64,000 nt of DNA, from assembly GCF_057098645.1 (NCBI RefSeq), contig NZ_CM169472.1; one strand, 5' to 3'. Below are positions 30,503-37,563 of this stretch, in pieces. The notes beneath the pieces are model-generated. The model did no database searches. It saw only the letters and a program-made list of their open reading frames with translations, and had not been told where the DNA came from. Position 1 is the stretch's first letter. Every line of letters begins with the position of its first letter. A program made the position numbers and the translations under genes.

Positions 30503-31392
30503 TGGTTCGGCAAAATCTTCCAGAACGCCTCAATCAGCGGCTCATGCAGCCGCTTTTTCTGCGCACAAACGCCCAGTTCAAACGGCGTTTTTTCATCGCT
30601 GCGCTCTAAAATCATCACGCGGTTACGCACCGGTTCGGGGCTGTTTTCCAGCACTACTTCCGGCAACAGCGCCACGCCACAGCCGAGCGCCACCATCGAT
30701 ACCATCGCTTCATGCCCGCCAACCGTGGCGTAAATCATCGGGTTACTGATTTTGTTACGCCGAAACCACAGTTCAATGCGGCGGCGTACCGGCCCCTGAT
30801 CGGCCATGATAAACGGCACCGTTGACCAGTCCGGCTTCTCTACCGACACCTGATTACGCACCGGGCAGGGCAGCGCGGGCGCAATCAGCACTACTGCCAG
30901 ATTCTCCAGCATCGAAAACGCCACTGCGCCGGGCAAGGTTTCCGGTTTACCCGCAATCGCCAGATCCGCTTCACCAGTGACCACCTTTTCCATCGCATCT
31001 GCCGCATCACCAGTAGTAAGTTTAATCTCCACCGACGGGTGTTCCGCGCGGAAGCGATCCAGAATCGGCGGCAGATGGCTGTAGGCAGCGGTCACCGAGC
31101 AGAAGATATGTAATTCGCCAGAGAGCGACGGCCCTTGCTGATCGATGGTGTGGCGCAGCTGCTGATACTGCAACAGCGTTTGCTGGGCGAAAACGCGCAG
31201 CTCTTCGCCCGCTTCCGTCAGCGTTACCGTGCGGTTATCGCGCACAAATAGCGGCTGACCAAGATCTTCTTCCAGGCGCTGAATCTGCCGTGAGAGCGTG
31301 GACGGGCTAACGTGCATCGCCCGCGCGCTGCGGCCAAAATGGCGGCTTTCCGCCAGATGCAGGAAGGTTTTCAGATCGCGTAAATCCAATGG
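30499..31392 (-). CDS. ilvY: LysR-family activator of ilvC
   Basis: Start placed at a TTG codon ([11 protein letters not shown]) to give the expected 297 aa; the ORF track starts at an upstream ATG that would run into the ilvC promoter. Confidence 0.85.
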
Positions 31393-31405
31393 CGCAGCCC
31401 TCAAT

Positions 31406-31437
31406 GTTGACGTTGCAGAAATTGCAATGTGACGTTG
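31406..31437. promoter_or_regulatory. candidate IlvY operator in the ilvY-ilvC divergent region
   Basis: Dyad TTGCAGAAATTGCAA (31413-31427) flanked by direct repeats TGACGTTG at 31406 and 31430. Confidence 0.55.
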
Positions 31438-31538
31438 TGAATATATCAATTTCCGCAATAAATTTCCTGTCATATAGTGAATTCAATCTCGCAAACGCGA
31501 ACCGAACAATAAGAAGCACAACATCACGAGGAATCACC

Positions 31539-33014
31539 ATGGCTAACTACTTCAATACACTGAATCTGCGCCAGCAGCTGGCACAGCTGGGCAAATGTCG
31601 CTTTATGGGGCGCGATGAATTCGCCGATGGCGCGAGCTACCTTCAGGGTAAAAAAGTGGTCATCGTCGGCTGTGGCGCACAGGGTCTGAACCAGGGTCTG
31701 AACATGCGTGATTCTGGTCTCGATATCTCCTACGCTCTGCGTAAAGAAGCGATTGCCGAGAAGCGCGCGTCCTGGCGTAAAGCAACCGAAAATGGTTTTA
31801 AAGTGGGTACTTACGAAGAACTGATCCCACAGGCGGATCTGGTGGTTAACCTGACGCCGGACAAGCAGCACTCTGATGTAGTGCGCACCGTACAGCCACT
31901 GATGAAAGACGGCGCGGCGCTGGGTTACTCGCACGGTTTCAACATCGTCGAAGTGGGCGAGCAGATCCGTAAAGATATCACCGTAGTCATGGTTGCGCCG
32001 AAATGCCCTGGCACCGAAGTGCGTGAAGAGTACAAACGTGGATTCGGCGTACCGACGCTGATTGCCGTTCACCCGGAAAACGATCCGAAAGGCGAAGGTA
32101 TGGCGATCGCTAAAGCATGGGCGGCAGCAACCGGTGGTCACCGTGCGGGCGTGCTGGAATCGTCCTTCGTTGCGGAAGTGAAATCTGACCTGATGGGCGA
32201 GCAAACCATTCTGTGCGGTATGTTGCAGGCTGGCTCGCTGCTGTGCTTCGACAAGCTGGTGGAAGAAGGCACCGACCCGGCATATGCAGAAAAACTGATT
32301 CAGTTCGGCTGGGAAACCATCACCGAAGCGCTGAAACAGGGCGGCATCACCCTGATGATGGACCGTCTCTCTAACCCGGCGAAACTGCGTGCTTACGCGC
32401 TGTCAGAACAGCTGAAAGAGATCATGGCGCCGCTGTTCCAGAAACATATGGACGACATCATCTCCGGCGAATTCTCCTCCGGTATGATGGCGGACTGGGC
32501 CAACGATGATAAGAAACTGCTGACCTGGCGTGAAGAGACCGGCAAAACCGCGTTTGAAACCGCGCCGCAGTATGAAGGCAAAATCGGCGAGCAGGAGTAC
32601 TTCGATAAAGGCGTACTGATGATCGCGATGGTGAAAGCGGGCGTTGAGCTGGCATTTGAAACCATGGTTGATTCCGGCATCATCGAAGAATCTGCTTACT
32701 ATGAATCACTGCACGAACTGCCGCTGATTGCCAACACCATCGCCCGTAAGCGTCTGTACGAAATGAACGTGGTTATCTCTGATACCGCCGAGTACGGTAA
32801 CTATCTGTTCTCTTACGCTTGTGTGCCGTTGCTGAAACCGTTTATGGCAGAGCTGCAACCGGGCGACCTGGGTAAAGCTATTCCGGAAGGTGCGGTAGAT
32901 AACGCGCAACTGCGTGATGTGAACGAAGCGATTCGCAGCCATGCAATTGAGCAGGTAGGTAAGAAACTGCGCGGCTATATGACAGATATGAAACGCATTG
33001 CTGTTGCGGGTTAA
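31539..33014 (+). CDS. ilvC: ketol-acid reductoisomerase
   Basis: Start at [14 protein letters not shown], 491 aa. Confidence 0.96.
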
Positions 33015-33059: not shown

Positions 33060-33365
<306 letters not shown>

Positions 33366-33539
33366 TCAGGCGGCGATTTTAGCATGATCCGCAGATGCTA
33401 ACGTAATTGTCAGTCAGGGAGGGGCTGGTACATATATGGCAAAAGCCCGGAAAATCCGGGCTTCGCAGGTCCCTCAAGGGGAGAAAACTTAGGGCCTCTA
33501 TGGGCTACAAAGTCATTATCGGGGATGGTGATTTTATTG

Positions 33540-33989
33540 TCAATTTATGAGCGATATGGCATTGATTGACTTGATGACCGCCCTCTGTATGTCTGCAACC
33601 AACTCATGTGGCAAACATTGATTAAGATACCCTCTGTAAGTTCTTGCTCTGTTTAATCTGTTTCGACTGACTTGTTGTACCAGGTCGGCTTTGGCCCAAC
33701 GAATCTGCTGATCAAAGAATTGCAGGTCATTGATAATATTACTGGCTATTTCAACATGCATTCCACGATTTAACTTGTCATGGTCGCGAGTGGTTGATAA
33801 TGGAACGACGATACATGCGTTGCCATTAATTTTTCCGTTGAGCACGACAACTAACCTGTTTTTTATCATTTCAGGAGGAATGCGGCCATCGTAATACGTG
33901 GTGCTGAACGGTCCATTTTGGCTAACAGGATAGTTACCAAAGTTGCATTCCAGTATTTCACCAACCTTAGGGCTGAAATTAATCGCCAC
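33540..33989 (-). CDS. yifN: PemK/MazF-like toxin-fold protein (yifN-like), 149 aa
   Basis: Start proposed at a GTG preceded by the strong Shine-Dalgarno AAGGAGAG; N-terminal GEILECNFG, then RLVVVLNG and IVVPLSTT, resemble the PemK/MazF fold; the longer 212-aa track ORF reads into the IS2 end. Confidence 0.6.
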
Positions 33990-34134
33990 GAGTAAACCTC
34001 TCCTTAGTAAACTCTGAAAAAGTAATAACACAACGTTACGACCTAGACTGGCCCCCTGAATCTCCAGACAACCAGTATCACTTAAATAAGTGATAGTCTT
34101 AATACTAGTTTTTAGACTAGTCATTGGAGAACAG

Positions 34135-34500
34135 ATGATTGATGTCTTAGGGCCGGAGAAACGCAGACGGCGTACCACACAGGAAAAGATCGCAATTGTT
34201 CAGCAGAGCTTTGAACCGGGGATGACGGTCTCCCTCGTTGCCCGGCAACATGGTGTAGCAGCCAGCCAGTTATTTCTCTGGCGTAAGCAATACCAGGAAG
34301 GAAGTCTTACTGCTGTGGCCGCCGGAGAACAGGTTGTTCCTGCCTCTGAACTTGCTGCCGCCATGAAGCAGATTAAAGAACTCCAGCGCCTGCTCGGCAA
34401 GAAAACGATGGAAAATGAACTCCTCAAAGAAGCCGTTGAATATGGACGGGCAAAAAAGTGGATAGCGCACGCGCCCTTATTGCCCGGGGATGGGGAGTAA
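34135..34500 (+). CDS. insC: IS2 OrfA (InsC), transposition regulator
   Basis: 121 aa starting [14 protein letters not shown]; helix-turn-helix protein. Confidence 0.93.
34452..34458 (+). other. A6G slippery heptamer, programmed -1 frameshift site joining insC to insD
   Basis: AAAAAAG near the end of insC; the insD frame is -1 relative to insC and overlaps it. Confidence 0.75.
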
Positions 34501-35363
34501 GCTTAGTCAGCCGTTGTCTCCGGGTGTCGCGTGCGCAGTTGCACGTCATTCTCAGACGAACCGATGACTGGATGGATGGCCGCCGCAGTCGTCACACTGA
34601 TGATACGGATGTGCTTCTCCGTATACACCATGTTATCGGAGAGCTGCCCACGTATGGTTATCGTCGGGTATGGGCGCTGCTTCGCAGACAGGCAGAACTT
34701 GATGGTATGCCTGCGATCAATGCCAAACGTGTTTACCGGATCATGCGCCAGAATGCGCTGTTGCTTGAGCGAAAACCTGCTGTACCGCCATCGAAACGGG
34801 CACATACAGGCAGAGTGGCCGTGAAAGAAAGCAATCAGCGATGGTGCTCTGACGGGTTCGAGTTCTGCTGTGATAACGGAGAGAGACTGCGTGTCACGTT
34901 CGCGCTGGACTGCTGTGATCGTGAGGCACTGCACTGGGCGGTGACTACCGGCGGCTTCAACAGTGAAACAGTACAGGACGTCATGCTGGGAGCGGTGGAA
35001 CGCCGCTTCGGCAACGATCTTCCGTCGTCTCCAGTGGAGTGGCTGACGGATAATGGTTCATGCTACCGGGCTAATGAAACACGCCAGTTCGCCCGGATGT
35101 TGGGACTTGAACCGAAGAACACGGCGGTGCGGAGTCCGGAGAGTAACGGAATAGCAGAGAGCTTCGTGAAAACGATAAAGCGTGACTACATCAGTATCAT
35201 GCCCAAACCAGACGGGTTAACGGCAGCAAAGAACCTTGCAGAGGCGTTCGAGCATTATAACGAATGGCATCCGCATAGTGCGCTGGGTTATCGCTCGCCA
35301 CGGGAATATCTGCGGCAGCGGGCTTGTAATGGGTTAAGTGATAACAGATGTCTGGAAATATAG
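34458..35363 (+). CDS. insD: IS2 OrfB (InsD), DDE transposase catalytic part
   Basis: 301-aa ORF in the -1 frame, recognised as IS3-family integrase; probably expressed as an OrfAB fusion. Confidence 0.9.
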
Positions 35364-35541
35364 GGGCAAATCCACGACCCGATATTTTCTAAGTCTAATG
35401 GATTCACGATGAACTCCGATTTCGGTCTTCTCTCTCTGATTTAAACATCCGCAGCCAACCGGTTAGCGGCTTACACGCGGTCACATTCAAATGCGATTCT
35501 GCTACAATCCTCCCCCCGTTCGAAGATTGAGCAATACACCT

Positions 35542-37563
35542 ATGCGTCTAAACCCCGGCCAACAACAAGCTGTCGAATTCGTTACCGGCCCCTGCCTGGT
35601 GCTGGCGGGCGCGGGTTCCGGTAAAACTCGCGTGATCACCAATAAAATCGCCCATCTGATCCGCGGTTGCGGTTATCAGGCGCGACATATCGCGGCGGTG
35701 ACCTTTACCAATAAGGCGGCGCGCGAGATGAAAGAGCGTGTAGGGCAGACGCTGGGGCGCAAAGAGGCGCGTGGGCTGATGATCTCCACTTTCCATACGT
35801 TGGGGCTGGATATCATCAAACGCGAGTATGCGGCGCTTGGGATGAAAGCGAACTTCTCGTTGTTTGACGATACCGATCAGCTTGCTTTGCTTAAAGAGTT
35901 GACCGAGGGGCTGATTGAAGATGACAAAGTTCTCCTGCAACAACTGATTTCGACCATCTCTAACTGGAAGAACGATCTCAAAACTCCGGCGCAGGCGGCG
36001 GCAGAGGCAAAGGGCGAGCGGGATCGTATTTTTGCCCATTGTTATGGGCTGTATGATGCACACCTGAAAGCCTGTAACGTTCTCGACTTCGATGACCTGA
36101 TTTTATTGCCGACGTTGCTGCTGCAACGCAATGAAGAAGTACGCGAACGCTGGCAGAACAAAATTCGCTACCTGCTGGTGGATGAGTATCAGGACACCAA
36201 CACCAGCCAGTATGAACTGGTGAAACTGCTGGTGGGCAGCCGCGCGCGCTTTACCGTGGTGGGTGACGATGACCAGTCGATCTACTCCTGGCGCGGTGCA
36301 CGTCCGCAAAACCTGGTGCTGCTGAGTCAGGATTTTCCGGCGCTGAAGGTGATTAAGCTTGAGCAGAACTATCGCTCTTCCGGGCGTATTCTGAAAGCGG
36401 CGAACATCCTGATCGCCAATAACCCGCACGTCTTTGAAAAGCGTCTGTTCTCCGAACTGGGTTACGGCACAGAGCTAAAAGTTTTAAGCGCGAATAACGA
36501 GGAACATGAAGCCGAGCGCGTTACTGGCGAGCTGATCGCCCATCACTTCGTCAATAAAACGCAGTACAAAGATTACGCCATTCTTTATCGCGGCAACCAT
36601 CAGTCGCGGGTATTTGAAAAATTCCTGATGCAAAACCGCATCCCGTACAAAATATCCGGTGGTACGTCGTTTTTCTCTCGTCCTGAAATCAAGGACTTGC
36701 TGGCTTATCTGCGCGTGCTGACTAACCCGGACGATGACAGCGCATTTCTGCGTATCGTTAACACGCCGAAGCGAGAGATTGGCCCGGCGACGCTGAAAAA
36801 GTTGGGTGAATGGGCGATGACGCGCAATAAAAGCATGTTTACCGCCAGCTTTGATATGGGCCTGAGTCAGACGCTTAGCGGACGTGGTTATGAAGCATTG
36901 ACCCGCTTCACTCACTGGTTGGCAGAAATCCAGCGTCTGGCGGAGCGGGAGCCGATTGCCGCGGTGCGTGATCTGATCCATGGCATGGATTATGAATCCT
37001 GGCTGTACGAAACATCGCCCAGCCCGAAAGCCGCCGAAATGCGCATGAAGAACGTCAACCAACTGTTTAGCTGGATGACGGAGATGCTGGAAGGCAGTGA
37101 ACTGGATGAGCCGATGACGCTCACCCAGGTGGTGACGCGCTTTACTTTGCGCGACATGATGGAGCGTGGTGAGAGTGAAGAAGAGCTGGATCAGGTGCAA
37201 CTGATGACTCTCCACGCGTCAAAAGGACTGGAGTTTCCTTATGTCTACATGGTCGGTATGGAAGAAGGGTTTTTGCCGCACCAGAGCAGTATCGATGAAG
37301 ATAATATCGATGAGGAGCGGCGGCTGGCCTATGTCGGCATTACCCGCGCCCAGAAGGAATTGACCTTTACGCTGTGTAAAGAACGCCGTCAGTACGGCGA
37401 ACTGGTGCGCCCGGAGCCGAGCCGCTTTTTGCTGGAGCTGCCGCAGGATGATCTGATTTGGGAACAGGAGCGCAAAGTGGTCAGCGCCGAAGAACGGATG
37501 CAGAAAGGGCAAAGCCATCTGGCGAATCTGAAAGCGATGATGGCGGCAAAACGAGGGAAATAA
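35542..37563 (+). CDS. rep: ATP-dependent DNA helicase Rep
   Basis: Start at [13 protein letters not shown] (673 aa); Walker A GAGSGKT; UvrD/Rep superfamily 1 motifs. Confidence 0.96.

Follow-up and report, generated by a model that had tools for sequence, protein, structure and literature searches.

IS2, a member of the IS3 family, is among the earliest insertion sequences ever described, and to our knowledge it is generally considered to be without a defined target determinant; IS911 and IS30 have target sequences which resemble their own ends. In EMBO J in 1983, Sengstag, Shepherd and Arber are said to have described a region of phage P1 which is a 'hot target' for IS2. Among 58 reconstructed IS2 duplications no target motif was found (PMC5009759). 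The two ends of IS2 have a specific asymmetry, with the left (IRL) and right (IRR) repeats differing at positions 2, 5 and 7 and an extra base at position 9, and the outward −35 hexamer TGGAAA forms the junction promoter in the IS2 minicircle (PMC3219604, PMC3299598). The same outward −35 at the right end of IS2 has built fusion promoters at ampC (Jaurin and Normark 1983) and at acrEF, both covered in PMC9330008, while in laboratory-evolved K-12 a new IS2 was described in yifN', between nucleotides 359 and 360 (PMC4340650).

The window, i.e. the whole stretch of 64,000 nucleotides analysed here (contig NZ_CM169472.1), contains only one IS2 copy (34044-35374), which lies between a yifN-like gene and rep. 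The original prediction described it as a complete IS2 of 1331 bp with intact insC and insD frames, an A6G frameshift site and flanking CGACC repeats, and all coordinates were confirmed by reading the sequence:

34039..34043: target-site duplication, left copy, CGACC
34044..35374, plus strand: complete IS2 (IS3 family), 1331 bp, transposase genes pointing toward rep
34044..34085, plus strand: IRL, 42 bp, tip TAGACTGG
34135..34500, plus strand: insC (orfA), from ATG to stop, 121 aa, helix-turn-helix (HTH), IS2 TnpA repressor
34452..34458, plus strand: A6G (AAAAAAG) programmed −1 frameshift site
34458..35363, plus strand: insD (orfB) frame, 301 aa, integrase-core catalytic domain
35353..35358, plus strand: outward −35 hexamer TGGAAA within IRR, facing rep, placed by the 17-bp spacer rule (PMC3299598, PMC3219604)
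35334..35374, minus strand: IRR, 41 bp, minus-strand tip TGGATTTG
35375..35379: target-site duplication, right copy, CGACC

Direct reading gave TAGACTGGCC / TAGACTGGCCCCC as the first letters of the element and GGCAAATCCA / GGGGCAAATCCA as its last, and the tips (left TAGACTGGC, right CAAATCCA) carry TA on the left and CA-3' on the right. When the two repeats were aligned they mismatched at positions 2, 5 and 7, with the additional base of IRL at position 9. A simulated −1 slip at the A6G site predicts a stop-free OrfAB of 409 aa, and the parts of a minicircle junction also appear to be present, as the right-end TGGAAA and the left-tip TAGACT would stand 17 bp apart given a 1-bp spacer. As far as can be judged from sequence, every defining feature of IS2 open to such a test is present, and the copy looks intact and is presumably mobile.

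Over its full 1331 bp the element matches an IS2 copy of FDAARGOS_943 with 100% identity; its nucleotide identity to the K-12 copies is 99.7%, with differences at IS positions 32 (inside IRL), 274, 606 and 900. The fused protein scored above the cut-offs of three NCBIfam models, i.e. NF006918 (IS2 TnpB, 723.9 bits, cut-off 597), NF006928 (IS2 TnpA, 238.8 bits, cut-off 229) and NF033516 (IS3 family, 279.5, cut-off 160), while Pfam assigned HTH_Tnp_1 to InsC and HTH_21, rve and rve_3 to InsD, and the nucleotide matches are annotated as 'IS3-like element IS2 family transposase'. The exact InsC protein was found in 80,750 collection blocks and the exact InsD protein in 23,327, the K-12 copies among the latter, and IS2 was found in 4853 of the 5426 complete E. 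coli genomes, with a median of four places per genome. The element is an ordinary, intact one of an already known kind, and a new strain-specific copy of it is routine.

The insertion lies in the divergent intergenic region between the following genes, one of which has a candidate promoter:

33540..33989, minus strand: yifN-like gene, GTG at 33989, 149 aa, PemK/MazF-family toxin fold (PF02452, E = 9.4e-11)
35480..35508, plus strand: best rep promoter candidate, GTCACA / 17-nt spacer / TACAAT with an upstream TG (consensus match only)
35542..37563, plus strand: rep (DNA helicase Rep), ATG at 35542

With one CGACC copy counted in, IS2 is 54 bp from the yifN-like GTG and its right end is 167 bp from the rep ATG, exactly as originally predicted. 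The yifN-like gene is intact and its product is identical to WP_000996686.1 of O145:H28, whereas the K-12 yifN allele is frameshifted (a pseudogene). None of the NCBIfam models matched the protein, and no antitoxin-sized co-oriented ORF was seen beside the gene in the ORF list, which holds ORFs of at least 40 aa only; it looks like an orphan toxin-like gene. The 212-aa ORF at 33540-34178 (minus strand) is an artefact in which the 149-aa toxin-like gene is extended through the 54-bp spacer into the left end of IS2, and annotators should be cautious here, as automated annotation could miscall it. Another ORF-listing artefact is the 541-aa ORF at 31389-33014: this is ilvC, whose product has 491 aa in annotated relatives, with 50 spurious codons added upstream. 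In a transcriptome study of K-12, a previously undetected small RNA was described downstream of yifN on the same strand (PMC4681348), and the equivalent 198-bp spacer between ppiC and the toxin-like gene (33342-33539) is present in the window. Positions 1-80 of the window are within mioC, which places oriC just past its left edge, at about 34 kb from IS2, whose transposase genes are, like rep, co-directional with replication.

Deleting IS2 together with one CGACC gave the exact, continuous sequence of close O145:H28 relatives, which was the check put forward with the original prediction, and CGACC is present in single copy in the empty alleles. While the chance of a 5-bp identity is 1/1024, it is the exact joining of the flanks in relatives, more than this identity, which proves a simple insertion. 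In O145:H28 strain RM12761 the flanks abut at 4578720|4578721, where the 25-kb left flank stops and the 25-kb right flank begins, and the left and right alignments to this genome overlap only by the duplication and one further base which is shared by chance. Aligned directly with RM12761, the window shows 21 mismatches and three gaps in the 34 kb on the left side and three mismatches in the 15.9 kb on the right side, i.e. 24 mismatches in about 50 kb once the element is left out. A 400-bp query consisting of the joined flanks with one CGACC, counted at ≥80% coverage, found the empty site in 4004 of the 5426 complete E. coli genomes, including K-12, with 100% identity in O145 strain RM9872 and 99.8% in K-12 derivatives. 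About 1360 of the 5426 genomes match the rep end alone, so that both the toxin-like gene and the adjoining part of the intergenic region are missing from them.

The insertion is thus missing from essentially all genomes, whereas its general presence would have counted against the original prediction, whose statement that K-12 has no IS at the locus proved right. The closest O145:H28-type genomes have no IS2 insertion here, the same insertion allele was found in none of the 5426 complete E. coli genomes, and the exact left junction had no matches in metagenome contigs. All ten of the further places listed with an identical toxin-like protein are IS-free, each with an intergenic region of 216 bp. 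Because the empty site is widespread, the close relatives are empty and the allele occurs in no complete genome, this is a young, lineage-specific insertion, in line with the recent simple transposition that was originally proposed. We put at about 0.96 the probability that this is an intact IS2 which arrived by recent simple transposition in one O145:H28-like lineage, and which likely affects rep little, if at all.

The original prediction missed that IS2 has recurrently targeted this site and its surroundings. Using chimeric junction queries, we found IS2 near the site in 25 other genomes, and each group was placed exactly on the empty allele L008:

L008 3196-3200, CGACC: ST540 (three records), same pentamer, reverse orientation
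L008 3195-3199, ACGAC: Z226-5 and Z226-6, one base to the left, with a diverged IS2 variant (97.8% identical)
L008 3129-3133, GCTGA: MB06101
L008 3008-3012, CTAAC: EPSSH018
L008 2808-2812, GTTTA: W3110-P lineage (seven records), laboratory strain
L008 2783-2787, GATAC: ETEC1730 group (ten records; base-level check on ETEC1730 only)
L008 2752-2756, GCAAC: N51

With the insertion in the window included, these amount to eight independent IS2 events in 450 bp (L008 2752-3200, corresponding to about 33595-34043 of the window), three of them within one base, and the IS2 variants involved are 95.7% to 100% identical. The laboratory hop of PMC4340650 falls in the GATAC pentamer of the ETEC1730 group, provided that its nucleotide numbering begins at the same codon. 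With the same query design, no genome had IS2 near either of two divergent intergenic regions of the window that served as controls (upstream of kup and of maoP), versus 22 genomes here. The toxin-like gene and the intergenic region have a G+C content of 42% and 44%, respectively, versus 52% for the window, and 17 IS2 sites sampled regardless of their flanks had a mean of about 40% over the surrounding 120 bp. The toxin-like gene is also dispensable: about a quarter of the genomes lack it, and K-12 has it as a pseudogene. The plain explanation of the regional recurrence is tolerance, combined with the general presence of IS2 in moderately AT-rich accessory DNA. An IS481-family transposase gene is present in MB06101 between ppiC and the toxin-like gene (L003 332-1378), with IS2 at the 5' end of the latter, so the ppiC-rep interval gathers other insertion sequences as well.

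An extended target consensus was considered, as many unrelated IS2 sites matched the flank over 9-35 bp and three sites shared GTTAC-AC. This was rejected, since control chimeric queries with unrelated flanks gave chance extensions of 16-32 bp and the 17 sites sampled regardless of flank share no motif, in line with PMC5009759. The left-end 30-mer of IS2 gave just nine loci in species-representative genomes, most of them truncated, and matches to the exact proteins were used to sample IS2 sites instead. Read from the left to the right end of IS2, the first base of the duplication is G or C in 15 of these 17 unbiased sites, while duplications ending in AC make up 3/17 of them and 4/8 of the sites in the rep region; both may reflect a weak preference, which is absent from published sequence logos.

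One reading of the single insertion in the window is that it is not there at all, and that IS2 was misplaced in the assembly through mis-joined repeats. Repeats are a classic source of misassembly, and most E. coli genomes have more than one IS2 copy, but a mis-join would not yield a perfect duplication of a pentamer which is single in relatives, with unique flanks that are collinear and adjacent; the assembly is taken to be correct in the source strain because of the perfect duplication and the exact joining of the flanks, and we regard an artefact as extremely improbable. It is also very unlikely, although less so, that the insertion was adaptive, i.e. that rep expression was changed by read-out or a hybrid promoter, or the toxin-like gene silenced, and that this was selected. 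The right end does face rep with its outward −35, as in the known fusion promoters, but the hexamers at spacers of 15-19 from it (ACGACC, CGACCC, GACCCG, ACCCGA and CCCGAT) match TATAAT at only 0-2 of six positions, and since none is a usable −10 a fusion promoter toward rep was rejected. The rep promoter candidate, the sole promoter-like site found in the region by a consensus scan, is intact and the same as in the empty allele, 106 bp past the end of IS2 and 34 bp before the rep ATG; from its position and the absent −10 we infer that IS2 would be without effect on rep. The original prediction had suggested a change in rep expression: its hybrid promoter fell with the missing −10 and the unchanged candidate, and read-out was not supported either, though no terminator-like site was found between insD and rep, so that weak read-through from the weak, self-repressed transposase promoter could still reach rep. 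Its further suggestion, that the yifN-like gene was cut off from its native promoter, was not borne out, because no consensus promoter for this gene was found in either the intact or the IS2-bearing allele and the retained 54 bp contain TGTTATTAC (34030 to 34022 on the minus strand), which by eye resembles an extended −10. Selection might also be read from the orientation of the eight mapped events, seven of which have the transposase genes toward rep, and ST540 alone was recovered when the opposite orientation was searched for specifically; this bias is not significant (two-sided binomial about 0.07) and only suggestive. Finally, five of the insertions lie 60-450 bp away from the one-base cluster. 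They reach as far as 606 bp from the rep ATG, and most of them fall within the toxin-like gene, itself a pseudogene in K-12, a scatter which fits tolerance better than a regulatory benefit common to all.

Three hits within one base are beyond what tolerance explains, with an estimated chance of roughly 1e-3 or less given eight events in 450-900 bp, and close to them is a sequence in the host DNA which resembles the IS2 minicircle junction:

35392..35404, plus strand: AGTCTA-A-TGGATT (AGTCTAATGGATT), IS2 minicircle-junction look-alike, host DNA

This 13-mer consists of the right-end tip in reverse complement, a single base and then the left-end tip; it matches the abutted IS2 tips perfectly (6+1+6), with the 1-bp spacing that a functional minicircle junction requires (PMC3299598). 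Situated 12 bp past the duplication, it has no other match in the 64-kb window and is conserved in 12/12 empty alleles, and a match this good is expected in about one per 3000 random 120-bp sequences, with spacers of 0-3 and both strands allowed. It could act as a decoy junction which captures the transposase-minicircle complex and steers insertion to the adjacent pentamer, and the three independent insertions within 1 bp do start 12-13 bp from it; if true, a target determinant would have been defined for IS2 for the first time. Such sequence-directed targeting is nonetheless as doubtful as an adaptive origin. The look-alike was spotted after the fact, and it was missing from all 25 further distinct IS2 sites that were scored (maximum 9/12, the random level), so the minicircle-junction mimic was rejected as a general feature; the absence of a motif among the 58 published duplications points the same way. 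The likeness also ends at six bases per tip, while it is the inner portion of the repeats that transposase requires for binding (PMC3299598), and the five insertions outside the one-base cluster are left unexplained by it. The position of the 13-mer next to CGACC is probably coincidental.

We therefore return to a recent simple transposition, for which the mechanism is inferred from the work on IS2 and its minicircle (PMC3299598, PMC3219604). IS2 would have moved by the normal copy-out/paste-in route of the IS3 family, in which a figure-of-eight intermediate gives rise to a minicircle that makes a staggered attack on the target. It landed, as a recent event in a single O145:H28-like lineage, in the 216-bp divergent intergenic region between the orphan PemK/MazF-like gene and rep, with duplication of the pentamer CGACC. 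The target is accessory DNA of AT-poor-to-moderate composition (about 42-44% G+C), where IS2 arrives and is tolerated unusually often; the consequence is most likely little or none for rep and probably unimportant for the toxin-like gene. The insertion can be used as a lineage marker for the O145:H28-like strain. With no fewer than eight independent IS2 insertions, natural or from the laboratory, and one published laboratory insertion in 450 bp, the ppiC-rep interval is a natural test bed for the question how an element that supposedly lacks target specificity picks its sites.

Compared with the IS2 copies of K-12, the element has the same 1331-bp length, imperfect repeats of 42 and 41 bp, TA/CA tips, two frames, A6G site, 5-bp duplication and InsD protein, and differs by the four bases given above, while the K-12 locus is unoccupied. 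At ampC and acrEF the right end of IS2 with its outward −35 likewise faces the downstream gene, but here there is no −10 at 16-18 bp, and the start of rep is 167 bp away with a promoter candidate of its own. The insertions in ST540, Z226, MB06101, EPSSH018, W3110-P, ETEC1730 and N51 share the 450-bp stretch with the one in the window, although they are in unrelated backgrounds and are independent by position, by orientation (ST540) or by IS2 variant (95.7-99.9%). With regard to the hot target in phage P1, the recurrence described here is chromosomal, includes the exact same site and was deduced from genome comparison rather than from a transposition assay, while both regions share clustered IS2 insertions in a short region, which in P1 too are reportedly at varied positions and without a strict consensus.
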